From assembly GCA_036172245.1 (NCBI GenBank), contig JAYWIR010000005.1, forward strand, positions 2,418,001 to 2,482,000: DNA of 64,000 bases, in the 5' to 3' direction. The translations under genes were made by a program, and so were the position numbers. The DNA comes from Raillietiella orientalis. Lineage: Eukaryota. This document shows, one piece after another, positions 2,901 to 64,000 of this stretch. Positions within the stretch are counted from its first letter, which is position 1, and the number at the start of each line of letters is the position of its first letter. The notes under the pieces were generated by a model. That model saw only the letters and a list, made by a program, of their open reading frames with translations, did no database searches and was not told the DNA's origin.

Positions 2901-3213
2901 TCATTGCCCTACCCTCCATAAACTATTTTTGTATTTTCTTTTTACACCCGCGTCCCCATAGGCTCCGGAACATTTTAGGTGCTCATCGTTTAAATCCCCG
3001 TGAGTACGGAGCCTAACCAAAAACCCGTTACCCTTCCCTCCAGTTTTTGATTTTTGTTTGTTTCCCCTCATTCCCCCCACGCTGCGAGCGGTTTGTTTAC
3101 CAGGCCTGCGTGCCGGTAATTTTTCAATGTTCTCTGTCGTTCTGTTGGTTAAGGACATTGTCCCTGACCAGTTTATTATTATTAATAAACGCCCCGGCGT
3201 GACCGGGTGATAA
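1..3213 (+). mobile_element. Non-LTR retrotransposon A1 (L1/Tx1-like), 3' part; 5' part lies upstream of the window; inserted in sense at the APE GDFN codons of B0
   Basis: RT ORF, 3' UTR, terminal AATAAACGCCCCGGCGTGACCGGGTGATAA followed by ATTTCAATC (3214-3222), the same 9-mer that forms the TSD of A2. Confidence 0.92.
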
Positions 3214-6350: not shown

Positions 6351-6569
6351 TCCCTTCCCTGCCCACCAACTTCTTTTTGTCTGTTTATGTTTTTTCTTTT
6401 TCTTTTTGTTTTATGCCCATCCCCCTTCGCTGCTGAGGAACGCTACGCTGGGCTGCGTCCCGGCGTCCCGGCAGGTCCAGTGCATATGGCCGTGAGCGGG
6501 GCCTTGTACCGCGGATGTAGAGTTTGTTTTTTTTTAAAAATAAACGCCCCGGGCGTACCCGGGTGTAAA
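3214..6569 (+). mobile_element. Retrotransposon B0, 3' segment from APE (D)FN to the 3' end; followed by mid-ORF1 of C0
   Basis: Homologous to B2 from 57012 onward; 3' UTR and terminal AATAAACGCCCCGGGCGTACCCGGGTGTAAA. Confidence 0.9.
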
Positions 6570-10686: not shown

Positions 10687-10893
10687 TTATCACCCGGGTA
10701 CGCCTGGGGCGTTTATTAATAAACTCTACATGCGTGGTAAAAGGCTTCACCACGGCCGTAAACACAGGACCTGTCGGGACACCGGGACGCAGCCCGGCGT
10801 GGCACTCCCCGACAGCGAAAGGGGATAAGGGGAAAAAACAAAAAGAAAAAAAAGAAATAAAAAACAAAAAGTGTTTGGAGGGCAGGGTAGGGA

Positions 10894-13046: not shown

Positions 13047-13134
13047 GCGGACGTGCTTTTGTAGCGCTCCTCTGCGCCTGGTGTAAAGCGTTTGGTTTCT
13101 TTTGTGTTTGTGTGTGAAGCATCTGCGGTGTCCA

Positions 13135-18739: not shown

Positions 18740-18943
18740 TCCCTCCCCAACCCTCCCAAATCTTTTTGTTTTGATGTTTTATTTTTCTTTTTGTTTTTTC
18801 CCCCACCCTTCCGCTGCCGAGGAGAGTCGCGCCGGTCTGCGTACCGGCGACCCAGCAGGTCCAGATGAGTTGGCCGTAGTGGGGCCTCGTACCACGAATC
18901 AAAGAGAATTTTTAATAAACGCCCCGGCGTGACCGGGTGGCAA

Positions 18944-19939: not shown

Positions 19940-20252
19940 TTATCACCCGGTCACGCCGGGGGGTTTATTGATAATAATTAACTGGTCAGGGACAATGTCC
20001 ACAACCAACAGTACGACAGGAAAGATAGAAAAATTTTTGGCACGCAGGCCTGGTAAACAAACCGCTCGCAGCGTGGGAGGAATGAGGGGAAAAAAACAGA
20101 AATCAAAAACTGGAGGGAAAGGTGACGGGTTTTTGGATAGGCTCCGTACTCACGGGGATTTATACGATGAGCACATGAAATGTTTCGGAGCCTATGGGGA
20201 CGCGGGTGTAAAAAGAAAATCCAAAATTAGTTTATGGAGGGTAGGGCAATCA

Positions 20253-39343: not shown

Positions 39344-42300
39344 TTTTCACCCGGATTTCGCCGAGGCGTTTATTGTTGAATAGACATTCACAAAGACGTG
39401 CAATTACTGGACCATTGCTTCAGCCATGCACGAAGAAGCACAGAGCCTGCCGGTTCACTGGTTTGCAGAGCGGTACGGTCCACCACGGCAGCAGGGGATA
39501 GGGGGAAAAAAAAAAATAAAAACAAAAAGAAAGGAAAAAATTGGGAGCATAAGGGAAGGGATCACAGTTGCTGGTGGGGCCATTGCATCCATTGCAGTAT
39601 GTCGGGAAGCTCCTTCTGTATTCCTGGATCCAGATGGGGCCATCGGGATGTCCTCCTCAGGAAATGGGAGACTGGCTGGATGACACCCTGGTCGTGTGGT
39701 CCCCCCGTAGCCTTGCTGCAGGCGGCGACGATCCCGCGAAGGCAGCACAGGGCTGCTAACGAGGCCGCTGACCGAAGGGCGTTTGCAACGAAGAGGGCTT
39801 TAAGAACGTCTCTGAGGTTGCCGCAGGGGATGCCTATCGCCGCATCGAAGCGAAATTAAAGGGTCCGAAGGGCAACATAATCCACTAGCAGGTGGGGGAG
39901 GGAATCACGTTCCCCACACCGGACGCAATTGGGGTCCACCGCTCCCCATGTCCAGTGCTGTCGTCGGGCGTTCCAGGGGAGTCCTTAGTGCTGCAAGAGG
40001 AGAGCCGACTCCTGCATTTCAAGGGGAGGGTGGAGGTGTTTATGAGTACCGGGGGCCACTTCGAAAGTTCAATGGGAACGTCGAGCAGCGCGCCCCAGCG
40101 AAGAAGTCCATGGGGAGGCGTACTCGGGATGGCAGCGTCGGTCAGCAGACCCCTCTTCCACTCTCCTATCTTCTTCTGCTCCCCGGAGATTGCAACTGAA
40201 ACCTCCCAATCCGTCGCAACATCGCTGTCCAGATCTTCCATCAGGGAGGAAAGCGCAGCAGCAAGGGGGGTTCTTCCTGCACACGTTTACTTCTTTGGAT
40301 CCTCCAGAATCTCGCGGAGCGTGCAACTTCTGTAACCCCCAAACAGGAACCTCCGTTCCTGTTGGGAGCGTTGCATGACGAACTGTCCCCACGTTCGAAC
40401 GGTTTCCTGCAACCAGGCACTACCGTTCAACGGGCGACAGGTGAGCAATCCTGGGTTTTTCCGATACAGCGCAGCCACCCTTCGTAGCTGAAGCCCACAT
40501 CGGTTGATGCGGCTTCGATGGAGTGCAAGAAACGACGTCAGTCCTGTCTTGCCGGTGGGTGGCTGGAGAAGGAGACGTGCAGGGACACACCAACAGGTGC
40601 ACCACAATTCTGAAACAAGTGCCGACAATCGCAACAGGAGCTGAAGCTCCAGCTTCTACAGCGTCAGGAGGCCCAGACCACCGTTCCGACGAGGAGCGCA
40701 CAAGTCCTTTCAGCGGAGTCGGGCCCTCCCGCTGCCCCAAAAGGCGATACGGAGGAGGTCCTTCGTCCGCTTTTTAATTCTCTCTGTGGGAAGGCAAACA
40801 AAAAGCATGGGGCGGAGGAGAGGAGCCGCGAACGTTTTCCAAACCGCGGCCCATTCAGGCAGGAATAACCTGCCGCCTCGGAAAGGGCCGATCGCCGTCT
40901 CTACTTTTTGGAGAAAGCCGGACCACGCTTCCGCAGGGGAGTAGTCCCCCAACGGCACACCAATGTACTTGAAGTACCTCAACGTGGAGATCCCCAAACG
41001 GACCCAGTCCTGCTGCCCTGCCCACGCCGCACCAACTGGCATCAGGGACGACTTCGCCCTGTTCACCGTAAGCCCGGTTCCTAGATTCAGCAGGTCGAAG
41101 AACTTCTGGACCGCTGAAGCCGGGGTAAACATAGGGAGCAGTAGCAGGAGGTCGTCCGCATATGCTGAAACCGCAGGCGTTCCGGCGCATTCAAGCGGCA
41201 GGTGGGCCAGAGTTTCCCTGTACGCTTTCAGTACCAACTCAAAGTAGGTACTAAAGAGCAAGGGGCTCAGGCTGTCTCCTTGCCGGATCTCACGTCGCAC
41301 CGGCACGCCGTGAACAGTATGCCCGCTGAAAGTAACATTGATTAGCGCATCGCGCCAGCTAGAGCGCAGATAGGCCAATAATGAGGCCGGGAAGCCCAAG
41401 CGTTCCAAAAGCTCCAGCAAGAGATTCTGGTCGACGCTCTCGAATGCTTTACGCAAGTCGACAGCGACCGCAAGTGCTCCCTTCCCCACCCGACCATCCA
41501 AACCCTTGCCGGCGCACGCACCGAGTTCCGGCTGCGCACCAAGCTCCTTTCGTGTTCAAGCTCTAGCCAGGTGGAAGCGTGGAACAGGTTCGCCTCCATG
41601 CTTCTCCCCGGAACAGCATGTGTCTCTTCAGGGCTGATGAAGGCGTTTGGAACCCGTCCCAAACGCTCAGCCCAAACCTTAGCTAGCAAATTGGCGTCCG
41701 CATTCACTATTGTTATGGGACGCTAGTTGTTCATGCTCCTCAGATCTCCTCCCATAGGGAGGAGCCGCACCTTTGCCGAACGAAACGAGGCGGGAACGTC
41801 ACCTGTCTCGCGAATGAGCAAGGTGAGTTGCTGTTCCAGAAGGGTAAGCTCAGCCGCGAAAGTTTCGTGAAACTCCTCGGGCAGCCCGTCTTCCCCTGGA
41901 GGCTTGCGCCTCTTGAGCTTTCCGATGGCAGAGAGGATCTTGTCCATCGTGAAAGGCTCGTCGAGGGTCTTTCTCTCCTCCTCCCCGATCGCTAGAGCGC
42001 CTTCCGGAAGTAGGAGTCGTGAGACGTTTCTCTCCGGAGGTGCCCTGGCATACAGGGAGGAGTAGAAACTCCGCAGCAGGCCGCAGATTTGGGCGAGTGC
42101 CGAGTGCTCCTGGCCCTGATCGTCCAGTAAGCTGGCCGATCCGGACTGCCAGGCTTGCCTCTCGGCTTCCGCTGTGTTATCCGCCAGCCTGCGGATGTCG
42201 GGGGTCCTGGCGTAACGACAAGCCTGCAAGTTGGCTCGTTCGTTACGGACCCCGGTCCCAAAACCCGTAGGTAGGCAGTGTAGAGGGAACTGGTTGCAGA

Positions 42301-44482: not shown

Positions 44483-47400
44483 TCACAAGTTCTGCACTAA
44501 TGGTGGATTTCCAGATGCTTGGTCGCGGGAGTCGCCTTCTATCCTCATCAGGATAAATCGGTACGTGCAGGCTTTGATTTTCCCACAGTTTCTAATGCCG
44601 ATTTCCCTCTTCAGGAGCCCTTGTAGGATCTCCATCGGTGGTGCGGCTCTTCTGGCTTTTCTCATTTTCCACAACCGCAAAAGTATGGCAGTGATGAAGA
44701 GGGCGATGGTCGTCCTCACCATGGGATTGTAACAGGGAACATTACCATCCCCCTGAAACATCCCGGCGAGAATCTCCATTACGGATCTGTTCGTAAGTCC
44801 GATGAACCTTTACAGGATCAGCCAGTCATGCAGCAATGTGGGAAACGTCAAGACATGAAGTCTCGTGTCGTTGTCTCCACATGCCGTGCAGTCTCGATCT
44901 TCCCGTCTTCCGGTATAGTACTGCAATCGGGACCCACTGTGGATTCCTCCATGATAAAACATCAGGAGGTCATCCTGGGTGCCCGGCGGAAGGTTACTTC
45001 TCCAGAGCGTCGTGCCGATCGCTAGAAGGTTGATTCGGTCACTTCCGTAGCGATCGGTTGCTCCCTGGAGGGCACTGATGTCACGGTCTTCTTCCCGAAT
45101 TAATCTTCGGAGGTTTGTTTTGAATACCCTGGACCACGCGAAGACGAGATGGTTGATCCACACCTCGCGAATAATGTAAGTAAACCTTCCTAACATCATC
45201 TCTATATACCTAAGTATACGGGTGTGATGTAGGTACCCTCCTCGTTTCCACACCTGGATTCGTTGTAGGGTAACTCAGGACCGCTGGTGGATCCAGCTTC
45301 TCGTGTCCCGCGGGACAGGAAGCATCCAAGAGATCACCAGGATGGACTCGTCCTGCAGAGTTCCCTACTTCTCAACACGATCTTGATTTTGTGCTTTCGC
45401 ACCAGCCGTTGCTTCCTCGTCCAGGTTGGGTCAATTGTTTTCCATTCGCATGCTCGGCCTAGTAGCGCAGTCTTCAGGCCTTTCGAGTTGTTCGACAACA
45501 ACGCGTAGGCCCTGTGCGCCGCATACGGCCAGTCATCCCAGTGAGTGGCAATGTCCAGGATGTGTCGCGTATCCATGATTTCTATGGAGTGTGCAAGCGA
45601 CTTCATCCCGGAACCGCCTTCTTCCCTGGGACGACACAGGGGTTTTAGTCGGCCTCTTGGGCGATAGTGGCCCCACAGTGTTTTTCTCTGCAGCTTGTCG
45701 AACTCCCTCGTTGTGTCCTTGTTCATCCTCGCGAAGGCCGCCCCGAAGAGCACTTTTGGAAGGAGTACTCCGTTTCATATGTTGGCCTTTCGCTTCATTC
45801 CAAGGTCCGTTCGGGTGTACTTGGCTGCTTCCTTGGCCGTTTTCCATAGGATCTCGCTCCACAATAGCTTCGACGCGGAGACGTCGCCAATGTAGACACC
45901 CAGGTACTTGGTCTTGTCCACCGTTCGGAATCCTTACCCCGCTAGAGTGGAGAGATCGAGGATTCCAACGGGCAAGAGCTGGCTTTTCTAGACGTTGATC
46001 TTTAGACCCAGGCCTTGATTCATTAGGTCTACCACATCCAGAAACGCCCGTTGATTTCTCTCTCCCTTGATAAAGAAGAGTAGATCATCAGCGTATGCCA
46101 GATGGGTAAGACGCTGGCCAACGATTGTTATGCCTTGCAGTCGTCCGCTCTTCTCGATAAAGGACGACAACGCCTCCATGTAGATGACGAACAGCATCGT
46201 ACTTAGCGAATCGCCCTGCCGGACTCCCCGTTCCATCCGGATTGCTGCCGTCTCCTGGCCGTTGATTTTGATTCGGCAGTACTGGTTCTGGAGTACCACC
46301 CTCACGAAGTTGTTGAAGTGTTCCGGAAGGCCTAGCTTCTCCAGAACCTTCAGCAGCATCCCATGGTCGATAGAGTCGAAAGCCGTCTCCATGTCAGTGA
46401 GCACCAGCGCCAGATTCTCGCCGACGTATCGGCTGAGTCCGACGGTGGCCTGGGCACACTTGACATTGTCCGACATGTGACGTCCAGGGACTGCACACGT
46501 TTGGACCGGAGAGATGAGCCTCGACATGACCTTGCCTACGCGGCTGGACCAGATCTTCGCCAACCACTTGGCATCGGAGTTCAGGATCAAGATTGGCCTC
46601 CATTGAGCGACCTGCGTGGGGTCGCCTCCTTTTGGCAACAATCTCATCCGACTCGCGTAGAAGGACTGTGGAAGTCTTCCTTCTTCGCGGATGCAGAGGG
46701 TCAACTGGTAGAACAAACGCAGGTAGGCATGCAGGAACCGCTGATAGTGAGCCATGGGTACGCTTTCAGGGCCCGCTGCCACGTCCTTGCGTAGTTCACT
46801 AAACGCAGTCATCACCTCATTTTCGGAGAACTCCTCCTCCTGTCTGTTCCGCTGGAGGTCGTCGGTCCTCTTCTCGAGATAGCTCAAGAAGGCCTGTTTA
46901 CTAGAGAGACAGAGATGTTGTCGCCTGAAGTGTTTCGTGTAATGGCTGTGAAAGGCATCCACGATGTCCTCAGACGACTGTCGCTTTTGACCGTCGTACT
47001 GGATGCAGAAGATATCTGTTGCCAGATTTCTCTTCCCCAGCACGTCGACTTCCCCTTTTATGTTCTTGAAGACGTACCGACTCTCGTACTGATCGAAGTA
47101 CTTTAGGAGTGAGTGATCTTGGATGTTTAGTTCCCGGTACGCCTCCTGCCTTGAGCGCCTATCCCCGAACTGCGTGTTCGCAAACATGTGTATCCTGTGT
47201 TTCAGGCTGTTTCAGTCGGCGACTCTTCGGATTGTTGTTGCCCTCAGAATCGCCTCCAGGACAGCCTGATGTCCGGGATGGGTTGCGAACCAGGAGAGCA
47301 TGCTGATGAGCGCCGCCCAGGTGCCTTGCCTCCGCCTAGGATTCTCCGTTCTTAGGGAAAACCGCACCAGGGAGTGATCGGACACCGTGGTCAGAATGTC

Positions 47401-48015
47401 CCGAAAACCCTGGATACGATTTCCTAGTTCGGTGCTGTGGAGGACGTGATCGATCGGCTTGTGACTTGCAATTCGCCACACCAGTCCGAACTCTCCGGAT
47501 AACCGCCGATACGCCGTCCTTCGTCTGGCGTCTTCGGAGTGGGTGATTTCATCCAATATGTTGAGATCGCCAGCAACAATCACGACGTCCTTGGAAGCAA
47601 CCTTTTCACGGAGTGCTGCATGCAGCGCCTCCGCACAACGATGTTTTAGCCTGTGCGGCCCGCACAGGTTCACCAGGATGAGGTGAACAGTAGCGGACCA
47701 GGCCAGTCGCACGCCGATGATTCGTCCGGGTTGGGGAGAGAACACTTCCAAAATAGTGAAGGCCAAGTTGATCTTGATTAGGACCGCCACACGCTGCGTG
47801 TTTCGTTTTCCCTCGCTGACGAACATCTGCCCGTTGAATCGCCGTTCCATTTGCTTACTAATCTCGAGACCCATCTTCTGGGTCTCCTGCAGGCACATTA
47901 TGTCTTGTTGTGCGATGGTCCGCACAATACTTTTTCTTTTTTCCTGGTTGACCACACCTTTTGCATTCCAGGAGTCGATGTTCAGCCTCCTGGCGGTCGA
48001 TAGAGAAGAGGACAT
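44483..48015 (-). pseudogene. G ORF2 APE-RT-CCHC, frameshifted
   Basis: SWNAKG, LQET, GDLN, IDH, SDH; QWRPI, DMETAFD, GVRQGDSLS, YADD; CTACGDNDTRLH. Confidence 0.88.
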
Positions 48016-48019
48016 AAAA

Positions 48020-49815
48020 GGGGAATTCCTATTTCTTGGCCTTGTTGTTCTTCTTCTGTCTGAGAGAGCGTGCTCTTCCAGACAACGAAGAAGCAGCGGG
48101 CTTCTTGCTGCCGGCGTCACTCTTTGTTCCGGTGAGGTCGGTTACTTCCGCCGCCTCCGTAGAGTGTTCCGCCCGCGCGATCAATTTTCGAGATAGCGCC
48201 TCTATCTCGACCTTGGCGCAGAAGTTCGCCTTTACGTCGAAAAGCTGTTCCTCTAGCTTCTCTCGCTCGGTGACCTCCACAACCTTGTTGACCTTTTCCT
48301 GTGCATTGCAGATCTTCTGCAAGATTTTCTCTTGCTGGGACAGCTCTGCACCTCTAGGACTTCATTAACCAGTGATGCCAACTCCTCCGTTGATTGCAGG
48401 GCCTCCTGCGACACTGGAGTGGCTTCCTGGTTTCCTACTTTCACGCCTTCCTGCGCTAGCTCCATGTTTTCGCCTTCCTGCACTGCTTCTTCTAGGATAA
48501 GAGGGATTTCTTGCTCCATGACGAGCATCCTCCTCTTTCCTTTCTTCCCTACCTGTATGAAGCCGTGTTTCGATACCGGCACGGCTTCTTTCACCTTCTT
48601 CGGCCTTCCTGCCTTCTGAGGCTGTTCCGCCTCCTTGGTGTTTCTTTCTCTCACGGGTGAGAGACCTCGAATCCTTCTGCAGTTTGCAAACTCCGGACAG
48701 CTCCATTTGGCATGTCCGTGTTTCTTGCAGCAGGAGCACACCTCCGGCTGCGGGCAGTTTCGGACTTGATGTCCTACTTTGCCGCAGCGGAAACAACGAC
48801 ACGTTGGCCAAGCGCCGGCCCTGTTGCCGAACTGCTTGCAGCCGGTGCAGAATATCGGTTGTTGCCGGTAACGCACGTTCACTCCCTGGGATTGTTCGTC
48901 AAGAACAACAAATCCAGGGATCACAGCTCCCTCTTTCAACTTCATTTTGGCGATCATGTCGCCAGAAAATATATTTTCAGAGAAGTTCTGGAATTCAAGG
49001 TCCAGAACTTCCCCATACTGCTCCAAAAAGTTCCGCACCGTTAGTTGCGGTGTGAGGATGGAGATGCCGTTCCGAAAGTTGGTTGTGTATGGCATGTTGC
49101 CAATACCACAAACCATCTTCCCTTGTATATTGATCCCCTTCTGGATCAATCGCTCTCTAATATTTTCACAGTCTGTGAAGACTGTCAACCCGTTATTTGC
49201 CGGTATGATCTCTTGTATTTGATCAAAATTGATATCCGTCTTATCGAAGGACAGATACACCTCCCTGATATTATTTAATTTGATCAGCCAAGTCTTGAAA
49301 ATGATGGGCTTCACATTTGGCCCTACATTCACGATTGACCGATCCACCTTTTGGACTTTGCCGCATAGCGGCTTCCCGAATTTTCTTGGTTGGTGGACAC
49401 TCGCTTGTCCAGCCGCCACCAACGAATAGGAAATGGGCTGCGCCGCCGCAGCCGAACAAGATGGCGTTTCACCCTGAACTGCGTGGACGCCCGCGGGTCC
49501 TGCCTGGGACGCTGCCGCCGCGAGCGCAACCCTTGACGTCGCCACCGTTGCCGCCGCGGGCGGCACCCTCGGCATCGCCGCCGCAGGCGCGACCTTCCCC
49601 GCCGCGGGCACGATCCTTGGTGTCGCCGCCGCGGGCACGACCTCCGCCGTCGTCGCCGCGGGCACGACCCTTGGCCTCGCCACCGCCGGCGCAGCAAAGC
49701 CCGCCGCGGGCGCGATTCTAGGCATGCCTGCCACCGCCTAGCTGTTGCCGCACGTTACCTCCATGGCTTCCATGGGGGACGACGGTCTCTCCACTCCTCC
49801 GCCAGGTTCCTGCAT
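48020..49815 (-). pseudogene. G ORF1, gag-like with three knuckles (first degenerate) and an Ala/Pro-rich repeat at about 49505-49715
   Basis: CTGCKQFGN, CFRCGKVGHQVRNC, CSCCKKHGHAKWSC; GCCGCCGCGGGC repeats; TAG at 49738-49740. Confidence 0.82.
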
Positions 49816-51710: not shown

Positions 51711-54705
51711 TTTGCTACCCGGATATGCCGGGGCATTGATTATTCCAATTTTTTACAAAAATTAGATAATAAAGACTTTAAAAAGATGCTTTCTGTGGGA
51801 AAACACAGGGTTCTCCCACCTTGCTCGAAGTGTCGGTTGCCGGTGCATAGACCGGTTAGGTCCATTCCCGAGACGCGTGGGAAGGGAAAACTGGAACAAA
51901 AACAAACAAAAAAAGAGATAACGGGGTGGGAAACAGTTATATGGGGAGAAAAAAGGGCAGGAAAGGGATCACTGGGCGCCTGGGTCGGTCCTTTGCATCC
52001 TGTTGAGAATGCAGTCAAGTTCAGTTTTCATTGTGAAAGGTAGACGCCACTTTGTCGCCGTCTCTAAAGAGATCGTCGTCCAGTGGATGGCGTCCCTGCA
52101 TCTTGGGCCTCTTCTTCTGGTGTGCCACCTTTGCACAATGCCGCGCACGCAGCAGAGGAATGCTAGAGACGCAGTGGGGCGCAGGCCGTCACGCAGAAAG
52201 AGGCGACGGTAAATTTCCTTAGGGTCGCCTACTGGAAGATGGAGGATTGGGGCGATTCTACTCCAGAGTCCATCCAGGGCGACACACTCGAGGGTGAGAT
52301 GCGGGAAGGTTTCTCTTTCTCCGCACTCGACACAGCGGGCATCCACATTTCCCAGTGTCCAGTGAGACAGGCGTGCTCTGCTTAACAGTCCCCAGTGCAG
52401 AAATAGCAACGCCGTCTCCTGCCACTTCAACGGAAGTGTGCCGCAATCCCAACACGCTGGGGGCCACTTCACCTCCTCCGGAGGTATTGCGAGCAGAACT
52501 CCCCAGCGCGCAATTCCGTGAGGCGGGACGCTCGGGGTGGCAGTGTCCGTGTGCTCCCGAGTCGTCCACGCCTTTGAAGGTTTTTTCCTGCCTCGGATGA
52601 AGTAGGACACTTCCCACGATGCCAGCTCGTTGCTAGTCCTAGGGTTTTTCAGGGAGAACAGAACGAAGGCAAGGGGACTGAAAGAAGCCCACAGAAACTT
52701 CCGGGGCATGTTGATAATCTCCTACAGCGGCTGTCGAGCGTACGGTCCTCGTCGTAGGCAGTTGTATTCCGCCTCGCTCGTGCCGTTGATCTTAGCCCAC
52801 GCGGAAGCTGACTCCTGAAGCCAGGCAGTGCAGTTCGCGGGAAGGCAGGAGATCCAGGTATTCTCCCTTATCAGGGCGACCATCTGGCGCAAATCAAGAC
52901 CACAGCTGGAGAGGTTGCGCTAATAGGCCACGAGGATCGAGGACAATCCTTCGCAGCCGGTCGCTCTTCTTGCGAGGAGCCGTGCAGGATCGCACCATGG
53001 CGTCATCCATAAGCTAGCCGCAAGGGCTAACTTCCGAAGTGTTGTCTGTAGTTGGATGCGCTCCAACGTAAGGAGGCCCAAGCCACCATCCCTGCGTGGA
53101 GCGCACAAGTGTTTCAATCGGAATCGCGACCTCCCTGTGCCCCAAAGGGCAGTCCTCAAGAGGGCTTTGGTCCGTCTCTGTATGATGGGAGGGGCGGAGC
53201 AAACAAAAAGTAAGGGGCAATGGAGAGGGTCCGCGAACGTGTTCCACACCGCGGCCCGCTCCTGCAAGTAAAACTTGCCGTTCCGGAACGGGCCGATCGC
53301 CAACTCCACCTTTTGGAGACGGTCGGACCAGGCTTCTGCAACGCAGAAGTCCCCCAACGGAACGCCAAGGTACTTGAAGCACCTGCCCGTGGGGATCCCC
53401 AAGCGGATCGAGTCCGGTCGTCCGGACCACGCCGTATTGTTGAAAAGTAGTGGTGATGTTGGAACGATGGAAGATTTCTCTCTGTTCACCTCGAGGCTCT
53501 TCCCGAGGCGCAGCAACTCAAAGAAATCTTCGAGCGCCAACGCCAGGGTGGACCCGGAGAGCAGGAGCAGAAGGTCGTCGGCGTAGGCCGACACGGCAGG
53601 CGTGCCGGGACACGAGCTTGGCAGGGTTGCCAGAGTCTCCCTGTATGCCCTCAGCACCAGGTCGAAGTAGATGCTGAAGAGCATGGGTCTCAGACTGTCA
53701 CCCTGCCTTATGCCACGACGAACCGGCACGCCGTACACGTGCCGGCCGCTAAAAGAGATGTTTATTAGAGCGAAGCGCCAGCAAAAGCGCAGGTAAGCCC
53801 GGAAGACTGCCGGGAATCCCAAGCGTTCCAGGAGCTCCAGAAGGAGTTCCTGGTCGACGCAATCGAACGCTTTACGCAGATCGACTGCGACCGCAAGGGC
53901 ACCGGGCGCGGCTCCTCCATGAAGGGCGTTTCCTTCCTGGTCAGAGGAGAATCCAGGATTCTCTTGAGCTCCCTGGTCTTCGCTTCGTTGCAACTGCCGC
54001 CATGTACTGGCGAGGAACAGGTTTGCCTCCATGCTTCGTCCGGGAACAGCGTATGTCTGCTCCGGACTCACCACGGATTCCGCCACCCGTCCCAGTCGCT
54101 CAGCTTAAAGCTTAGCAAGCAACTTCGCATCCGCATTCACTACTGTGATGGGACGCCAGTTGCCTACGTTACGATTGTCTCCTCCTTTCGGCAGGAGACG
54201 TACCTTAGCCGACCGGAACGATTTGGGGACGTCCCCTTGTTCTCGGATCAGCATGCATAGCCGATGCATTAGGGGGGCCAGCTCCGCCACGAAGCCTTGG
54301 TAGAACTCCGCGGGCAGACCGTCTTCTCCTGGTGCTTTCCTCTTTTGGAGCTTTCCGATGACGGAGACCATCTCCGCCATCGAGAAAAGCTCCTCGAGTT
54401 GATGTGTCTGCTCCTCCTGTAGCGCGGGGGCGCCTTGCGGTACCAAGCGCTGCGCCACGGCGCGCTCTGTTATTCTACGCGCGTACAAGGAGGAGTAATA
54501 GTCCCACAGGATGCGGTTTATTCTCTCCGGAGCTGAGCATTCTTGGCCTTGGGCGTCCAGCAAGCTGGCCGACCCGGATTGCCAGGTCTGTCGCTCAGCC
54601 CCAGCTTTATACTCCGCCAGGCGTCAAACGTCGGGAGTCCTAGAGTAAAGACGGGCGTGGTGGTATGTCCGGTCGTTACTCAGCCCTCCGCCGAATCCCT
54701 TGGCG
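51711..54705 (-). mobile_element. Retrotransposon H 3' segment (linker GFG to the 3' end), antisense in E; host of B2/B3
   Basis: ORFs 54105..54563, 52920..54086 (DLRKAFD, YADD), 51969..52709 (CVEC..HLTLEC); terminal GCCCCGGCATATCCGGGTAGCAAA. Confidence 0.88.
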
Positions 54706-54716
54706 AGTGGACGTGT
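54706..54716 (+). promoter_or_regulatory. Conserved 5'-terminal (G/A)GACGTG motif, candidate internal Pol II promoter element (DPE-like)
   Basis: Present at all six A-E 5' ends: 13049, 22138, 31448(-), 33766(-), 43002, 54709, and also 60373. Confidence 0.6.
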
Positions 54717-54794
54717 GTTTCCTTCGCCCCCGAGTGAGTCGACAGGAAGCGGTTTTTTGTTGCGTTGTTTAGTGTGGAACATCGTTGGTATCCG

Positions 54795-56552
54795 ATGGCA
54801 GCGATGCCTGAGGACACCACGATGGAGGTAGGTGTAGGGGAGGCTTGCCCATCCCCACAGCCTACAGAATCTGGGGCGTCCGCCCCGGAATCGCCCTCGC
54901 CGCTCAAGGCAAGGAGCTGGAGCGCCATGGTGGCCGCGCCGAGCGCGGAAACCATGGCCGAGATGGCGGCCTACCGGGCAGCTGGATACAAGCCCAGCTT
55001 GGTTTACCAGGTAGGCAATCTCTTTGACGGGCGAACTGCACGCGCTTTTTCGAAAGCGCTGCAGAACGCCAACGTGTTGGAAAAGGACCTTGACGGTCTA
55101 TCCGTGCTCAGCGGGGGTCAGCGCGTCGAGGTTGTCTGCAAGGACATCACCTTGGCGCAAAGCTTGATAACCACCCCGCTGAACGTGGACGGACGCAAGA
55201 TCCTACCAGTCACGATGGACCGCTCCGTAGTGGTACATCTGACAGGGATCACCAGCCGCATGACGCGGTCTGCGGTTGGTGATCAATTAAGAAAGTATGG
55301 AGATGTTCACGCGCTATGGCCAAAGGCCACAATCTTCGATGGCTACGATAGCCTTTTCGGAGGGCAAGCCGCCGCGCGCGTGACGGTGAAGGAGAGTGGG
55401 CTTCCCCACAAACTAGAGGTCAATGGCGAAGTCGTAGACCTCTGGTACGTGGGGAAACCCCGCTTGTGTGGCTACTGCAATGCAGTAGGACACTTGCGCA
55501 AGCGGTGCCCGAACATTGTGTGCCACTTATGCGGGGAGAAGGGCCACGTACGCCGCGTATGCCCTAAACGCCCCACTCCGGTGCCGCCTGCTGCAAAGAA
55601 AGCACAGGCAAAACGCGGTAAACTGGTCGAAAGACCAAAAAGAGATACTTGCCGGCAGCAGCCGCTAGCCCCTGTTCCTCCCACACAGGCGTCGGAAGAA
55701 AAACCCTCCGAAGACGCGGGAGTCCAAGACGGCTGGCAGCTGGTCAAGGCCAGGTAGGAGAAAAACGTGCACCCCGCGGAACCCGCGAAAGCGGTACAAA
55801 AGACAGCCGGCAAGGCGAAAAATCCTGGGCCGCGCTCTAAGACCATGCGGGAGTGTACGGTAGCACTGGAGCGCATAGCCGTTCCCGAGATTGCCGCCCG
55901 GGGCGAAGAGCCTTGCCTCGCCGTTTCCGCCGCGCCCGAGGTTCGCGACGGCGAACCCTCTGTTTACACAGAGGGTGAGCCGCGCGAAATAGCGACGGTC
56001 GAAGCCGAGGACGCCGCGTTCGCAAAGGCGGCGGAGGAGCGCGCGGCCACGGTGGCGGAGCGTGAGAACCCCTCGCGCAAGGCCGTGCTAAGGCCGGCTC
56101 CCGCGAAAAAGTCCCCCACAGGTGAGTCGGACCTGGAGGCCGGAAGTGCATCCCCCTCCTCGGAGGCACCCCCCAGGAAGTCGGGACGCAAGTCCCAGAA
56201 ACCCAGGAGGCGCCTCCCCACCACCAGCGAAGAGGAGAAGCAGGAAGGTAGCGGTAGCGTGGGAATCCCGGAGGGGGAACTCCCACGCTCGGAAGCCGTC
56301 GAGCCGGCCACCCCCATGAAGGAGGGTGAGCAGGGGGGCGAAGTCCTCCCTGCAGTCGCCGAGCCTGAACAGCCCGCCCTCATGGAGGAGGGCCAACAGG
56401 TAGGCGCGACCCCACCTAAGGGTGACCCGCTCGACGCGCCGTTACCCATGAAGGAGGGGGACCAGGTGCACGCAGCGCCTGACCCTCCTCCTCCACCTAG
56501 CGTCCCGCCCCAACAGGTGGCGGACGCCGCATCGCCATCTTCCCAGGAATAA
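54795..56552 (+). pseudogene. B2 ORF1, gag-like; one in-frame TAG at 55755-55757
   Basis: ORFs 54765..55757 and 55767..56552 in the same frame; two CCHC knuckles. Confidence 0.9.
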
Positions 56553-59500
56553 CACCTGGGCTCGCCAGTCGCCGTCGGATTCGCGCCGCCTGTTGGAACG
56601 TCAACGGGCTGCGCGACGACGGTAACAGGCGAGATACCGCCGACACCCTGCGTGAGTTCGACCTGGCCCTGCTGCAGGAGATCCCCGTGATCACCGCGGA
56701 AGATGCCCAGGAGATCGAGACAATCGCGGGGGGTCGGCTGTATTGGCGGTGCGGCCTCCGCAACACCTGCGGGGTCGCGTTCTTCTTGAAGCCGGCCATC
56801 GACGCGGCCGTGAAGGGCTTGCGCTTCGATGACGACGGTCGGGACGGTCAGCTGATTCTCAGCTGGTCCGACTCGATCGAATTGATCGTCACGAATGTGT
56901 ACGCCCCCAGCGGTAAACAGGAATACAGCGACCGTACCAGGCTGCTGGATTCCCTGAAGCGCGACTGCCTGGCGGACACGAACGTGCGGAAGGCTCACCT
57001 GATAGCGGGAGATTTCAATCTCCGTCTGCTAACAGGTGAGCCAGAAACACAAGAGAACGCGATGAACGAGTTGTGCGCCGCCATGCGTACGTGCAACTTG
57101 TTCGCGGGTGAGAGGGGAATGGTCCGCAGCATCGACCACGTCTTCCTCGACGCTGACCTGTGTTCACGGGTCGGCAAACGGGGGAGGGTTGGGTCGACGT
57201 TGTCGGACCATTCCCGGTTAATTTTCGAGATGCGGCCTCGTGACAAGGGACCGCCATCCAGGGCTTGGCGTCTGCCGGGGGACTGGACGCGACTCTCAGG
57301 TGCGAGGGAATACCTTCGCGAACACCTGAGAGGTGTCACGCTCCGGAATCTCCAGGACTGGAACCTTTTTAAGGAATCGGTCCGCGAGTTCTGTGAGCAG
57401 TTCCCCCTGGATCGCCTGCCCACCGGATTCGGCGAGAGTGCTCGCAACCATCGGGCCTATTTACAGGCTCGTAGATAAGAGAGAACCCCTAATGTTCGTC
57501 GCCTGGCCGAGTACCGCGCCGGGGCCGAACGCCAAGCCTGGCAATCCGGGTCGGCCAGCTTGCTGGACGACCAGGGCCGGGAATGTTCGTCCCCGGCGTC
57601 GGTACGGCATCTAGTGCGGAGTTTCTATTCCTCCCTTTACGCCAGGGAGCCCCCGGATCGAAACGCCTCTCGGCGCTTGCTTCCGGATGGCGCCCCGGCA
57701 ATAGGGGAGGAGGAGATGGAAAGCTTCGACGAGCCTTTTACCACCGGCGAAATTCTCGCCGGTATCAAAAGGCTCAAGAAGCGTAAAGCTCCAGGAGAAG
57801 GCGGCTTGCACGCGGAGGTCTTTCAGAGCTTCGCGGAAGAGCTGGCACCCCTGCTGCTTAAGTTGATCAGGCTGATCCGAGACGAAGGCGATGTTCTCGC
57901 CTCGTTTCGCTCAGCCAGAGTGAGGCTCCTGCCGAAAGGGGGAGACCTCAGGGATTTAAAGAACTGGCGTCCGATCACGATCGTGAATACGGACGCCAAG
58001 TTGATCGCAGGGCTATGGGCTTCGCGTCTGGGGCAGGTGGCAGAATCCGTAATTATCCCGGAGCAGACTTATGCTGTTCCCGGGCGAAGTATGGATGCCA
58101 ACCTCTTCTTCGCACGCACATGGGTGCACCTGCAGAGAAGAGAGAAGAAAGGGATAGGGAAAGTCGGCAACCCCACATTGGGGCCGCCAGCCGGGCTGGG
58201 AAGGGAACCCCGGGCAGGGAAGGGGGCCCTAGCGCTCGCAGTCGATCTCCACAAAACGTTCGACTGTGTAGACCAGGAACTTCTCTTGGAGCTCCTGGGT
58301 CGCATGGGCTTTCCACCCTCCCTGATTTCCTACCTGCGCTCTTGCTGGCGGATTGCGATAATTACCGTCTCTTTCAGCGGTCAAAAGGTGTATGGCGTGC
58401 CGGTGCGGCGGGGCATAAGGCAGGGAGATAGCCTCAGCCCCCTGCTCTTCAGCACCTACTTTCAGTTGGTGCTGAGAGCGTACAGGGTGACTTTGGCCCC
58501 ATTGCCGAGCTCGTGCCCCGGCACGCCCGCCGTAGCAGCGTACGTCGACGATCTTCTGCTTTTGTTGCCAATGTCCACCCCGGCAAAGGCGGTCGGAGAC
58601 TTCTTCGATCTGCTCAGCCGCGGGACCGGACTGCAGGTTAACAGGGCGGAGTCGTCGGTTGTGCCAATAGGTGCGGCGTGGGCAGGGCAGCAGGACTGGG
58701 TCCGCCTGGGGATCCCCACGGCGAGGTGCTTCAAGTACCTTGGTGTGCCGTTGGGGGACTACTCCCCTGCGGAAGCGTGGTCCAGCTGCCTCCAAAAAGT
58801 CGAGACGGCGATCGGCCCGTTCCTGGAAGGCAAGTTTCACTTGCCGGAACGGGCCGCGGCTTGGAACGCCTTCGCGGCCCCCATCCTCCGCCCCTTGCTT
58901 TTTGTTTGCCCCCCCACCGTGGAATCCAAGAAGAGGACGAAGGACCTCCTCCGTATCGCCCTTTGGAGCAAGGGGAGGCCCCGAGTCCCACTGAAGGACT
59001 TGTGCGCTCCGCGTCGGGACGGCGGTCTTGGCCTCCTGACGCTGGAGCGCGTGGAGAAGCAGCTGCGGTGGCAACCCTCGCGATCGCAGCGAAGATGTGG
59101 AGCACCCCTTGGTGCACTCCGGCCCGCCTCCTGGCCAGCCGTGTGTCCCGGTGCGATGGACTCGCGTCTTTTCTTCTGAGCCGTGGCCGGAAGATGCGAA
59201 GATGCGGCCTACTTCTCGGGCGCATGGCAACATTGGCCAAGGAGAACAGCTGGATGGTTTGCTGCCCCGCCAACTCCCCCGCCTGGCTGGAGGAGAATAT
59301 TGGAACGTGGGCAGTAGTTAAGCAGAGAAGCCACGAGACGTGGAATCGTCTCCGATGCAGCCCCTACGCCCGCTGCACGCTGCGGAATCTCCTGGAGAGT
59401 CCAGCAAGATGCACGTGGGCAGAGACGACCTGCCTAGCTACGGCGCTGCCCTTCCTAAGGAGGGCACTTCACAGCACCCGGACGCCTAGGTGGCAAGTCT

Positions 59501-60147
59501 CCTGCTGCATCGAGGGACGCAAGAAGTTGATCAGCGGCTGGACAACAGGAGAACTGGCCGACGGCACGACCCCGAGCGTCCAGCCGCGAGGATTAGTAAG
59601 ATGGGGCTAGCTGCTCGCCATCCCCAGGGATGAGCTGAAGTGGCCCCCGGTGATGAAGGAATCCAGGATCCTGCCCCTCAAGTGGCAAGAGTCGGCGTTG
59701 CTTTTGTTGCATTGGGGTCTACCCTGCAACGCGCGCCGCTTCCACTGGACGAGGGGAGCTGTGGATCCTGCGTGTGCCAGGTGCGGGGAGCGGGAGTCTC
59801 TCCCCCACCTTATTGTGGATTGTGCTGCCCTCCGACCCCTTTGGGAACGGTGCGGGACGACCCTCGGGCTCCCTACAGGCAGCACTTCCAGAGACGTTCT
59901 TCGGCCCCTCTTCGTGAAGGACGCACTGCAGCCAGCCGCAGCCATCGCAGCCTTGTGCTGCGTCCGTGGCATCGTGGGGGCATGGAGCGACGACAACAAC
60001 GAAGGAGTGGGTCCACAGGCGAGGGATGTCATCCCCTATGCCAAACGCTTCTTGCGAAGAGCTGCCGTATGGCTCCAACTGGGGAATATGCAGACTGACC
60101 TCGAGGGCTTCGTTCGACGAATGGGCCCTCCCCACAGCGACCAGTGA
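56552..60147 (+). pseudogene. B2 ORF2 APE-RT-CCHC (about 1200 aa); stops at 57476 and 59608, frameshift near 59075; YVDD
   Basis: ORFs 56687..57478, 57560..59179, 58678..59610, 59650..60147. Confidence 0.92.
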
Positions 60148-60352
60148 TCCCTTCCCTGCCCTCCAACTTCTTTTTGTTTGTTTCTTTTTATTTTACTTTT
60201 TGTCTTATCCTTATCCCCCTTCGCTGTCGGGGAGTGCCACGCCGGGCTGCGTCCCGGTGTCCCGACAGGTCGTGGGTTTACGGCCGTGGTGGGGCCTTGT
60301 ACCACGCAGGTAGAGTTTATTAATAAACGCCCCTGGCGTACCCGGGTGATAA
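60145..60352 (+). other. Structured 3' UTR: TGATCCCT at the stop, U-rich tract, CUGCGU-loop hairpin, AATAAA, terminal CCCGG/CCGGG hairpin
   Basis: Similar architecture at ten 3' ends (3213, 6569, 10687, 18943, 19940, 27736, 39344, 51711, 60352, 62702); degenerate in some copies and extended in subfamily A. Confidence 0.75.
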
Positions 60353-60369
60353 CGCCAACTCCCTTGGCG

Positions 60370-62701
60370 AGTGGACGTGTTTTTCCTTCGCTCTCGAGTG
60401 AGTCGACAGGAAGCGGTTTTTTCTTGTGTTGCTTGGTGTGGAACATCGTTGGTGTCCGATGGCAGCGTTGCCTGAGGACACCAAGATGGAGGGAGGTGTG
60501 GGGGAGGCTTGCCCACCCCCACAGCCTACAGAATCAGGGGCGTCCGCTCCGGAATCGCCCTCGCCGCCCAAGGCGAGGAGCTGGAGCGCCATGGTGGCCG
60601 CGCCGAGCGCGAAAACCGTGGCAGAGATGGCGTCTACCGGGCAGCTGGGTACAAGCCCAGCTTGGTATACCAGGTAGGCCCCTTGTTTGATGGAAAAACG
60701 GCACGCGTGTTTTCGAAAGCGCTGCAAAACGCCGGAGTAAGAGAACAAGATCTTGACGGTTTGTCCGTTCTCAGCGGAGCTCAGCGAGTCGAGGTGGTGT
60801 GCAATGAGATCACCTTGGCTCAGGCTCTGATCACCAACCCGCTGAACGTCGACGGCCGCAAGATCTTGCCAGTGACGATGGACCGCTCCGTGGTAGTCCA
60901 TCTCACTGGAATAACGAGCTGTATGAGTCGCTCTGCGGTCGCACAAGAACTGCAGAAGTTCGGCGAGGTGCACGCGCTGTGGCCTAAGCCAACAATCTTT
61001 GAAGGCTTCAATAGCCATTTCGAAGGCCAGGCTGCAGCGCGGGTAACCGTGAGTAAGGATTGTGGGCTTCCCCACAAGCTGGAGGTCGCGCAAGAGAGCG
61101 TGGACCTCTGGTACGTGGGAAAGCCCCGGTATTGCGGCTACTGCGATACCGTAGGACACCTTCGCAAGAGGTGTCCTAACATCCAATGCCACATGTGCGG
61201 GGAGAAGGGCCACGTTCGACATGTGTGCCCAAAACGCCCCACCCCGGTTCCTCCTGCCGCGAAAAAGGCGCAGGGGAAACGCGCACTAAAGGTCAGAAGA
61301 CCTAACGCGGACGCTGGCCGGCTGAAGCTGCCAGATCCTCAACCTCCAAAAGAAAAAACGGAGGATAAACCTTCCCAAGAGGCAGTAGGTGAAGAGGGCT
61401 GGCAACTTGTAGCAGCCAGAAAAGAGAGAAAAGCTCTTTTAAAGGAGAAGAAAGAGAAGCCGGCCGGTAAGGCAAAAAATCCCGGGCCGCGTTCGAAAAC
61501 CGTACGCGACTAAACGGTGGCACTGGAACGTATCGTCGTTCCGGAAGATGCCACCGGGGCGACGAGCCTCCCCTCGCCGTTTCCGTCGCGCCCGAAGTTC
61601 GCGACGGCGAACCCTCTGTGCAAACAGAGGGTGAGCCGCGCGACGCGCCGGTCGACACCGAGGACGCCGCGTTCGCAAAGGCGGCGGAGGAGCGCGCGGC
61701 CACGCTGGCGGAGCGTGAGAACCCCTCACGCAAGGCCGTGCGAAGGCCGGCTCCCGCGAAAAAGGCCCCCACAGGTTAGTCGGACCTAGGGGCCGCAAGT
61801 CCATCCTCCTCCTCGGAGGCATCCCCCAGGAAATCGGGACGCAAGTCCCAGAAACCCAGGAGGCGGTTCCCCTCCACCAGCGAGGAGGAGAAGCAGGAAG
61901 CTAGCGGTAACTTGGGAATCCCGGAAGGGGAACTCCCACGCTCGGAAGCCGTCGAGCCGTCCACCCCCATGGAGGAGGGTGAGCAGGGGGGCGAAGTCCT
62001 CCCTGCAGTCGCCGAGCCTGAACAGCCCGCCCCCATGGAGGAGGGCCAACAGGTAGGCGCGACCTCACCTGAGGGTGACCCGCTTGACGCGCCGTTACCC
62101 ATGGAGGAGGGGGACCAGGTGCCCGCAGCGCCTGACCCTCCTCCTCCACCTGGCGTCCCGCCCCAACAGGTGGCGGACGCCGCATCGCCATCTTCCCAGG
62201 AGTAACACCTGGGCTCGCCAGTCGCCGTCGGATTCGCGCCGCCTGTTGGAACGTCAACGGGCTGCGCGACGACGGTAACAGGCGAGATACGGCCGACACC
62301 CTGCGTGAGCTCGACCTGGCCCTGCTGCAGGAGATCCACGTGATCACCGCGGCAGACGCCCAGGAGATCGAGACGATCGCGGAGGGTCGGTTGTATTGGC
62401 GGTGCGGCCTCCGCAACACCTGCGGGGTCGCGTTCTTCGTGAAGCCGGCCATCGACGCTGCCGTAAAGGGCGTGCGGTTTGATGACGACGGTCGGATCGG
62501 TCAGCTGATTCTCAGCTGGTCCGTCAGACCATTCTCAGCGTCAACGTTGTCGGACCATTCCCGGTTAATTTTCGAGATGCGGTCTCCCGACAAGGGACCG
62601 CCATGCAGGGACTAGCGTCTGCCGGGGGACTGGACGCGACTCTCAGTTGCGAAGGAACACCTTCGCGAATACCTGAGAGGCGTCACGCTCCGGAATCTCC
62701 A
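60370..62701 (+). mobile_element. Retrotransposon B3 5' segment, head-to-tail with B2 (ORF1 60459-62205; APE with internal deletion); cut by I
   Basis: 5' UTR same as B2/B1; ORFs 60509..61513, 61912..62205, 62340..62615. Confidence 0.9.
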
Positions 62702-64000
62702 TTGAAACCCGGGTGTGCCGGGACGTTTATTCTCACGAAGAAACCTATACAATCTGTGACTGGACCAGTAGTCCAGCCACGCCCTGGAAAGATATAGCTT
62801 GCCGGGCTACCGGTGCGCAGACCGGCGCGGTCGACCTCGGCAGCAGAGGGGAGGGGGAACGAAACAAAAAGAAAACAAAAAATAAACAAAAATCAGGGAG
62901 GAAGCGGGAAGGGATCACAGTCTGCTGGGAGGGTCCGTCATCCTCTGGAGGATGCCGGCAAGCTGTTTCTGCGTGTGTGGTTCCAGATGGGGCCATCGCG
63001 TCGCCATCCTGAGGAAACAGGCGGCATACACGTTGGCATCCCTGTCGCTGGATCCTCCCGTCGACTTGCTCCATGCCACGACGATCCCGCGTAGGCAGCA
63101 CAGGGCTGCAAGCGAGGCCGCTGGAGGCAGGGCGTCACGGACGAAGAGGGGGCGCAAAGCGTCTCTGGGGTTGCCTCCGGGGATCCCCAGGGCTGCGGCA
63201 AAGCGTTCCCACAAGGGACGGAGGGCAACACAATCCACTAACAGGTGGGGGAGGTATTCCCTCTCCCCGCACCTGACACAATTAGGGTTGACACCCCCCC
63301 TCGTCCAGTGGTGTCGGCGGGCGTTGCAAGGAAGCCCCCAATGCAACACCAGCAGTGCCGACTGTTGCCACTTCATGGGGAGGGTGCGCGAGTCCATGAG
63401 CACCGGGGGCCACTCGAGATGTTCCTCAGGAACATCCAGTAGCTCTCCCCAGCGCAACAGTCCATTTGGGGTGGTCCTCGGAATCGCAGCGTTGGTGAGC
63501 TGACCCGTTCTCCAATCCCCGATCTTCTTTGCCCTGCTGGAGATCTTGACAGTAACCTCCCATTGTGCCGCGACGTCGCTGCCCAGATGTTCCCGTAGGG
63601 TAGGCAGTACCGCAGCAAGGAAGGTTCTTTGTTCCCACGCTCTCCTTCGGGGATTCTCGATGATTTCTCGGAGCGTGCGGCGGGCATGCGGCCCGAACAG
63701 AGCTATTCGCTCGTGTTGCGGGCTCTGCTCCTGAATCATCGCCCACGTGCGGACGGTTTCCTGCAACCAGGCAGGACCGTTCGCGGGGCGTACGAGGTTC
63801 CGCGCCGAGTTGTTCTTCACGAGCTTGACCGCCCTCCGAAGTTGAAGTCCGCAGTGGCAGATGGGGCTTCGGAGTGCAAAGTAGGACGAGAGTCCTGCAT
63901 TGCCGGTGGCCCGCTCGAGGAGGAGACGTGCAGGGAGGCACCAAGGGGTGCACCAATTTTCTGCCATAAAGGCAACAACTCGGAACTGGAGCTGAAGCTC
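62702..64000 (-). mobile_element. Retrotransposon I 3' segment (C-related), antisense in B3; continues beyond the window
   Basis: Open ORF 62915..63967 with CVRCGEREYLPHLLVDC; terminal AATAAACGTCCCGGCACACCCGGGTTTCAA. Confidence 0.9.

Follow-up and report, generated by a model that had tools for sequence, protein, structure and literature searches.

A conserved 3' UTR hairpin with a C-U-N-C-G-N loop in an L1-group LINE lineage of Raillietiella orientalis

In the arrangement known from L2 elements, a hairpin lies directly beside the 3' terminus. The ORF2 protein (ORF2p) of ZfL2 has been described as binding its 3' stem-loop through the linker between endonuclease (EN) and reverse transcriptase (RT), with the loop giving family specificity between ZfL2-1 and ZfL2-2 (PMC4176376), while the 3' stem of the eel element UnaL2 is reported to require a bulge and a mismatch (PMC1636434). 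For the L1 clade, one survey counts only three SINE partners among >800 families (PMC3472496), and a monocot L1 lineage has been described with a compensated 3' hairpin that is shared with SINEs (PMC3472496, PMC3747384). On the protein side, a basic surface of human L1 ORF2p is reported to cradle an Alu-like stem-loop upstream of the template end, helping to define the start of target-primed reverse transcription (TPRT) (PMC10830416). Tx1 elements that insert into other transposons are also known (PMC4494074).

Here, we studied a hairpin (SL1) in the 3' untranslated region (UTR) of a LINE copy, B2, of Raillietiella orientalis. The stretch analyzed, hereafter the window, comprises 64,000 nucleotides (assembly GCA_036172245.1, contig JAYWIR010000005.1, positions 2,418,001 to 2,482,000 of the forward strand). 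Self-BLAST and tblastn maps showed that it is made up of LINE copies inserted one inside another, and it belongs to an island of ca. 300 kb of such LINEs (G000:C5, about 2,318,000-2,617,000) inside a 6.2-Mb contig of the 210-Mb assembly. Between about 2.318 and 2.617 Mb, LINE proteins span 30 to 90% of every 10-kb interval, compared with 0 to 10% in the 20 kb that precede the island and in the following 35 kb or so. Comparable islands were seen on contig C72, at the beginning of C4, and close to the end of C35, and a centromeric or heterochromatic role is possible. Farther along the same contig (2.80 and 2.90 Mb), host exons at two loci (L049 and L050) encode titin-like immunoglobulin I-set repeats, one L049 reading frame matching Pfam PF07679 with an E value of 1e-11; these repeats identify the host as an animal. 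The features of B2 and the SL1 copies found in the window are collected in Table 1. The 5' ends of the LINEs (window positions 13050, 22115, 31445, 54709, and 60373) share a GGACGTG(T/C)TTT motif, and in the B family the ca. 20 nucleotides before this motif resemble the family's own target in ORF2, as if captured from it.

Table 1. Features of LINE copy B2 and copies of SL1 in the window (window coordinates)
Feature	Position	Strand	Remarks
LINE copy B2 (L1 group), decayed	54689..60352	+	Inserted antisense in ORF2 of copy H; self-BLAST, tblastn, junctions
B2 ORF1, CCHC zinc knuckles	54738..56552	+	Interrupted by a stop near 55757
B2 ORF2: APE endonuclease, RT, weak zf-RVT C-terminus	56501..60147	+	Broken: stop near 57478, frameshift near 59080
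ORF2 stop, C-rich stretch, U-rich tract (60168-60206), second C-rich stretch	60145..60222	+	Same order in all window copies
SL1 of B2	60224..60268	+	Lower stem 60224-60231/60261-60268; 7-nt 5' bulge 60232-60238; upper stem 60239-60246/60253-60260
SL1 loop of B2, CTGCGT (CUGCGU)	60247..60252	+	Lineage pattern C-U-N-C-G-N
SL2, second hairpin, sequence varies between families	60285..60306	+	Fold and family comparison
AATAAA, candidate polyadenylation signal	60322..60327	+	Sequence
SL3, terminal CCCGG-N5/6-CCGGG hairpin and 4-6 nt tail ending AA, without poly(A)	60328..60352	+	Sequence, junctions
Next B-family copy, head to tail with B2	60353..62523	+	Self-BLAST and tblastn maps
SL1 of copy A	3099..3117	+	Closing pair C-G, without lower stem; loop start 3106
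SL1 of copy B0	6430..6474	+	Loop start 6453
SL1 of copy B1	10771..10815	-	Loop start 10792
SL1 of copy D	18814..18858	+	Closing pair U-A; loop start 18837
SL1 of copy A2, 3' arm decayed	20030..20055	-	Loop start 20047; covariance model E value of 0.7
SL1 of copy C1, loop decayed to CTAGAA	27587..27630	+	Loop start 27610
SL1 of copy C2, damaged stem	39447..39492	-	Loop start 39468
SL1 of copy H, loop CTATGC	51828..51875	-	CTATGC in 5/5 copies of the H cluster; loop start 51850
SL1 of copy I, loop CTGCGC	62799..62843	-	Loop start 62820

These elements are LINEs of the L1 group (L1/Tx1). ORF2 carries the Pfam domains PF03372 (APE endonuclease) and PF00078 (RT), and the solved protein closest to the ORF2 of a sister copy was human L1 ORF2p (E value of 2.5e-44; R2, 1e-13). 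In a quick RT tree of 55 rows, the window copies formed a single clade (100%) and the lineage grouped with plant and vertebrate L1-like RTs, apart from those named R1 or R2 (96% SH-aLRT). There it occupied a long branch of its own, in a comparison whose matches included no named Tx1 sequence. One Tx1-like trait, a preference for particular target sequences, was present: 26 of 44 junctions of the B family fell at one ORF2 nucleotide, as did 18 of 24 at one nucleotide in a second family. The closest protein found was a single 73%-identical fragment without context; an exhaustive search with the C-terminus gave 10 hits, and none of the 73 pattern matches in a metagenome scan was confirmed. The window also holds, at 44390-49251 on the minus strand, a more distant L1-like element with an A-rich end that is sister to the lineage in the RT tree; it gave no match to the covariance model of SL1. 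We found no description of SL1 in the literature on hexaloops in non-LTR retrotransposons and on Tx1-clade SINEs and stem-loops, with subscription journals and Repbase outside the coverage of that search.

SL1 of B2 was predicted to fold into an 8-bp lower stem, a 7-nt bulge on the 5' side, and an 8-bp upper stem carrying a hexaloop (-27.6 kcal/mol). The folding z score was -2.1, likewise -2.1 on the reverse strand, and the whole 216-nt UTR was not unusually stable (z of +0.5). The hairpins that an earlier note on this DNA had quoted for copies A, B0, B1, B2, C1, D, H, and I were all found at their places. We built a covariance model from 40 representatives, a training set that includes two window copies and close relatives of the remaining ones. 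Of the 10 UTRs that the lineage has in the window, this model recovered nine with E values of <1e-3, and it found nothing else below 0.7. The Rfam search that the note had recommended returned no family (0 matches at the gathering score in the window; best E value of 1.6 in the UTR), and readings of SL1 as a ribozyme, SECIS element, histone stem-loop, or iron-responsive element (IRE) found no support; a tRNA search found no genes. Family A (window 2900-3210, plus strand, and 19945-20255, minus strand) has a duplicated UTR module in which the C-rich stretch, U tract, and hairpin occur twice, the first module copy having a different 9-bp outer stem and lacking the CUGCG loop.

In order to describe SL1 across the lineage, 3' ends were gathered from 130 search loci and from islands, of which about 524 kb were used. 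A terminal-motif search of the island DNA yielded 71 ends, and 13 of 78 ORF2 C-termini were without such a match. Ten ends were added by hand and three were excluded: one lay at the limit of the retrieved DNA, one came from an unrelated LINE, and one had an interrupted UTR. After removal of the tandem terminal repeats of one locus (L143), the final set contained 215 ends in 40 sequence clusters, each represented by one real copy. Among these clusters, 23 are single copies that carry postinsertion decay, and since four family searches were seeded with UTRs containing the hairpin, the within-family samples lean towards intact copies.

The five core pairs of SL1 were paired in 88.4% of cases over the 40 representatives, versus 17 to 51% in slid registers, and none of 500 shuffles, which ignore relatedness, reached as high a value. 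RNAalifold gave an identical helix on an alignment made from sequence only. The closing pair was C-G in 16 representatives, U-A in 10, G-C in three, U-G in two, and unpaired in nine. The note had proposed that it switches among G-C, U-A, and C-G; all three were seen and it is the top covarying pair, although closure was nonstandard in nine of the 40 representatives; one 24-copy family, for instance, closes with A.A, and in another family C.U is found in 11 of 26 copies. Measured against a null that was simulated on the ORF2 C-terminus tree (38 of the 40 clusters), the closing pair ranked first of 325 column pairs, with an E value of 0.034 among the ten stem pairs but 1.1 over all pairs, and support for its covariation is modest. 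Pairs 4 and 6 each had a P value of about 0.04 under the same tree-based null. By parsimony, the closing pair underwent about 3.6 family-level changes to another Watson-Crick pair versus about three to nonpairs. A genome search for the core pattern with the closing pair left free, CGGNCTGCGNNCCGG, gave 1,714 matches, which are not independent copies, versus 53 for the reversed control, so that the hairpin exceeds what chance would give. Among the first 100 matches listed, with closing pairs counted by hand, 87 were Watson-Crick, six wobble, and seven unpaired, while about 43 Watson-Crick pairs would be expected from base frequencies.

Pair -6/+6 was G-C in nine, A-U in eight, and G-U in five of the 24 representatives of the B/C/I clade, and it was paired in 18 of 20 hand-picked dispersed copies with both sides left free. 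The lower stem was 88% paired in the same clade, to which it is confined (49.5% over all 40 clusters), and covariation of this outer stem, also claimed before, was borne out for one of its eight pairs only (C-G 16, U-G 3, and U-A 2 of 24), the others having no two-sided change. G.U outnumbered A.C in SL1 by 27 to 4 as counts and by 13 to 4 as events; as events, this excess was not different from that of within-family variants (17:12; P = 0.34), and we do not use strand asymmetry as proof of selection at the RNA level, since it is not significant once independent events are counted. In the 14 clusters that have four or more copies, folding z scores averaged -0.9 for the sense strand and -0.1 for the antisense strand, and alternative folds beat SL1 in several of these families. 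Conservation was 80 to 100% at 11 positions of SL1 and 40 to 50% in the flanks. A conserved 3' UTR hairpin with compensatory changes is thus present, with modest statistical support, and we conclude that the SL1 helix is under selection, on statistical proof that is moderate, not strong.

The consensus of the loop, described initially as a CUGCGU hexaloop, is better given as C-U-N-C-G-N. Over 38 clusters, the first position was C in 34, the second U in 37, the fourth C in 30, and the fifth G in 35, while the third was G, A, U, or C in 27, 6, 4, and 1 and the sixth U in 15, G in 10, A in 9, and C in 4. CUGCG is common to most clusters and some families have loops of their own. In the 24-copy family with the A.A closure, 21 copies have AUACGA; another family, of 29 copies, has a pentaloop; and CUAUGC is found in all five copies of the H cluster. 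Two multicopy clusters have cUUCGg, and CUGUGC occurs as a variant in three clusters. The CTAGAA loop of copy C1, which the note had listed as a variant, is decay of a single copy, its sister cluster having CTGCGA in five of seven copies. In the pentaloop family (L145 and the 29-copy cluster, e.g., L065:9700-9865), SL2 has a 9-bp stem with the loop CUUCGA in 13 and CUUCGG in nine of 29 copies, and the loop motif seems to have moved there from SL1.

Two known folds would account for free third and sixth bases, a pseudo-triloop with a C1-G5 pair and a UNCG-type turn, and the SL1 loop may adopt either. Judged by its bases, the loop fits a pseudo-triloop in which base 6 is bulged, with C1 in 34 and G5 in 35 of the 38 clusters and a free sixth base; positions 1 and 5 showed no covariation, and the 24-copy family has A1 together with G5. 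The loop also contains the core of a UNCG turn, which is present in most clusters, with the closing-type G at position 6 in only 10 of 38, and the data do not separate the two.

Behind the stop codon, the tail has a fixed order of elements. A C-rich stretch, the U tract, and another C-rich stretch lead to SL1, which is followed by SL2, different in each family, and by an AU-rich linker; then come AATAAA, SL3, and four to six bases ending in A, with two to five A residues. AATAAA is the best-conserved motif of the tail, and the SL1 loop lies at a variable distance of 70 to 147 nt before it. SL3 is as conserved as SL1 (1,805 genome matches versus 0 for the control) and is 85% paired; being nearly invariant, it offers no covariation. 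The longest A run after SL3 was one to six in all 215 junctions; the long poly(A) of relaxed-type L1s is therefore missing, and the elements behave differently from mammalian L1s, which are driven by poly(A). We considered long-range pairing between SL1 and SL3 through their CCGG palindromes and rejected it, as changes in the SL1 stem were matched locally and not mirrored in SL3. No flanking helices were predicted that would make the U tract an ENE or a poly(A) partner. By eye, GGCC...GTGG-GGCC...CCAC at window 60282-60306 and in B-clade copies could form a small H-type pseudoknot, the candidate helix GTGG/CCAC being replaced by GCGG/CCGC in several clusters. One 3' end, at L143 (minus strand, G000:C20:2925925-2926276), has its last ca. 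61 nt (AATAAA, terminal hairpin, and target bases) repeated behind it in three copies arranged head to tail, each beginning just behind SL2, for which repeated reinitiation by RT and unequal exchange can be offered as alternatives. Three very short 5'-truncated copies, L060 (G000:C5:2516500-2516945, minus strand), L092, and L195, comprise barely more than SL1 to SL3; one of them lies directly behind the 3' end of another copy, and a target duplication of 11 bp accompanies L092.

Insertion into sister LINEs takes place at a nucleotide particular to each clade, in most cases within ORF2 and in antisense orientation (215 copies; for instance, window positions 3210, 10690, 18940, 27720, and 62705). 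Where junctions fell at shared sites (111 cases), the family of the tail and the site of insertion stayed within one ORF2 clade, as expected if each ORF2p copies its cognate RNA; against a reading based on ORF2p, such clade-linked targets would also follow from plain cis preference. The idea that the shared loop licenses mobilization across families was not supported, as no tail of another clade was found at the exact site nucleotide in these 111 junctions. ORF2 coding sequence lay upstream in 209 of the 215 tails and the other six had no common head. Of 20 dispersed pattern matches, 19 lay behind a LINE ORF2 and the twentieth was a truncated LINE tail. No partner SINE was found in these 215 plus 20 tails, a small sample beside the 1,700+ genome matches.

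The evidence supports SL1 as an RNA structure that acts in cis within the 3' UTRs of an L1-group lineage. As to its role, we lean toward a putative affinity anchor for ORF2p in a stringent-type tail, with SL3 positioning the start of TPRT. This rests on a helix and a C-U-N-C-G-N loop that are kept while the flanks turn over and on inserted copies that lack poly(A) and stop within a few bases of SL3. The transcript would be cut or polyadenylated 20 to 25 nt after AAUAAA; ORF2p would bind SL1, through its loop and CGG/CCG stem, and thereby select the element's own RNA; and reverse transcription would begin at a fixed point just behind SL3; and SL3, not SL1, would set the precise start. The proposal that SL1 is an ORF2p recognition element like the 3' stem-loops of L2-type LINEs thus survives in part: a selected cis-acting 3' UTR hairpin is supported and an ORF2p handle is its most likely role, but the hairpin directly beside the 3' terminus is SL3, the better positional match, and the loop is mostly common to the families. 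SL1 probably works like a stringent-type tail, but given that the positional feature of L2 elements fails for it and the functional features are predictions, we do not file it as a stringent-type member.

If ORF2p does read SL1, stringent recognition of RNA would have an example in the L1 group of animals, with a bearing on the proposed origin of relaxed L1s, driven by poly(A), from ancestors that were stringent; the sister families also supply a natural series of mutations in loop and stem, set against different ORF2 proteins. A bolder version, which we hold as a speculation with the odds against it, is a stringent handle in two parts. ORF2p would read the sequence of a C-U-N-C-G-N pseudo-triloop that is portable and sits on a bulged hairpin, convergently with hepadnaviral epsilon and TAR, and SL3 would be a separate terminal ruler hairpin. 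Were it true, some 40 or more sister families with different DNA targets would use one RNA handle, making RNA capture and target choice separable modules.

The anchor reading has to be weighed against a host partner: a host RNA-binding protein might bind SL1, or SL1 might serve 3'-end formation, stability, export, or germline localization of the LINE RNA, acting jointly with AAUAAA and the tracts rich in U and C. A loop that is nearly constant across clusters with ORF2 C-termini only 28 to 40% identical to the reference would fit such an unchanging partner, and AATAAA is better conserved than any other motif of the tail. IRE and TAR loops bind host proteins. Pseudo-triloops of the IRE and TAR type are listed among protein-binding motifs (PMC1636360). 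We nevertheless consider this unlikely, since the motif was not seen in host genes, all 20 dispersed matches sampled being LINE tails, and since family-specific loop variants persist in large families.

SL1 could instead be a packaging or nucleation signal for the ORF1 protein (ORF1p). Nucleocapsid proteins with CCHC knuckles bind hairpin loops containing G, and the knuckles of ORF1p resemble theirs; the loop has its G5 in nearly all clusters, and such a signal would not need the fixed 3' distance that SL1 lacks. The known stringent LINE tails are, in the account of PMC4176376, read by ORF2p, and we think a role for ORF1p improbable.

It is also conceivable that the loop is only a stable UNCG-type cap that nucleates folding, with the hairpin as a sequence-independent spacer or anchor and a loop unread by protein. 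U-N-C-G is kept with any of the four bases as N, two clusters have the canonical cUUCGg, and human L1 ORF2p engages its stem-loop largely without sequence contacts, according to PMC10830416. Against it, the CGG/CCG stem is conserved in sequence and not in pairing alone. C-G closure, which stabilizes UNCG loops, is mostly absent, as the distribution of bases at position 6 indicates, and we give this explanation little credence. Finally, that the motif acts at the DNA level (as a palindromic protein-binding site or a cruciform in the repeat island) or is inherited without function is hardly credible: the CCGG palindrome that forms the core recurs in SL3, folding is about equal on the two strands with no significant asymmetry, and the elements make islands of ca. 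300 kb, but the changes are compensated and pass through G.U intermediates, orientation and place in the transcript are fixed, the 11 conserved positions stand out from their flanks, and the motif is kept in copies dispersed outside the islands.

Compared with the stringent LINEs of the L2 clade (UnaL2, ZfL2-1, and ZfL2-2), as far as these are described in PMC4176376 and PMC1636434, the tail shares a 3' UTR hairpin with an interrupted stem and a conserved loop and the lack of dependence on a long poly(A). It differs in belonging to the L1 group, in the distance between SL1 and the end with a separate terminal hairpin, SL3, and in that ORF2p binding is a prediction; in addition, set against ZfL2-1 and ZfL2-2, the loop is largely common to the families, and no partner SINE was seen in the tails sampled.

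Closer parallels exist within the L1 clade. Monocot-1a elements (LINE1-1_ZM with ZmSINE2/3) and L1-1_CR of Chlamydomonas, as presented in PMC3472496, likewise have an L1-clade 3' hairpin with compensatory stem changes and conserved loop bases that is read as stringent. Here, the host is an animal, there are at most six A residues, and no SINE was seen, while the algal pair is described as ending in poly(A) and both the plant and algal pairs share their tail with SINEs (PMC3472496). Since stringent hairpins are known for plant L1s, SL1 is less unusual for an L1-like element than the earlier note had claimed: such hairpins are rare in the L1 clade, but the monocot hairpin and the stem-loop surface of human L1 ORF2p are precedents. 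Human L1 ORF2p, the closest solved ORF2p (E value of 2.5e-44), also meets a stem-loop upstream of the template end (PMC10830416). Unlike the elements described here, human L1 is reported to need a long poly(A), to read the stem mostly without sequence contacts, and to have a 3' UTR without such a stem-loop (PMC10830416).

With the target-specific LINEs of the Tx1 group, the lineage shares an L1-group ORF2, an ORF1 with zinc knuckles, and sequence-specific insertion into mobile elements, as outlined in PMC4494074; its targets are coding positions in sister LINEs, and the RT comparison was made without named Tx1 references. The pseudo-triloops of hepatitis B virus (HBV) epsilon (CUGUGC), IRE, and TAR, as characterized in PMC1636360, resemble SL1 in that a hairpin of two stems with a bulge carries a hexaloop with C1, G5, and an unconstrained base 6, and HBV epsilon is itself a binding site for a reverse transcriptase (PMC1636360). 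This is an analogy only, with a putative C1-G5 pair here and no Rfam match, and it implies no homology. In this company, SL1 is a signal of a kind already known, and what is new is the undescribed animal L1-group lineage that carries it and the unusual arrangement of two hairpins.
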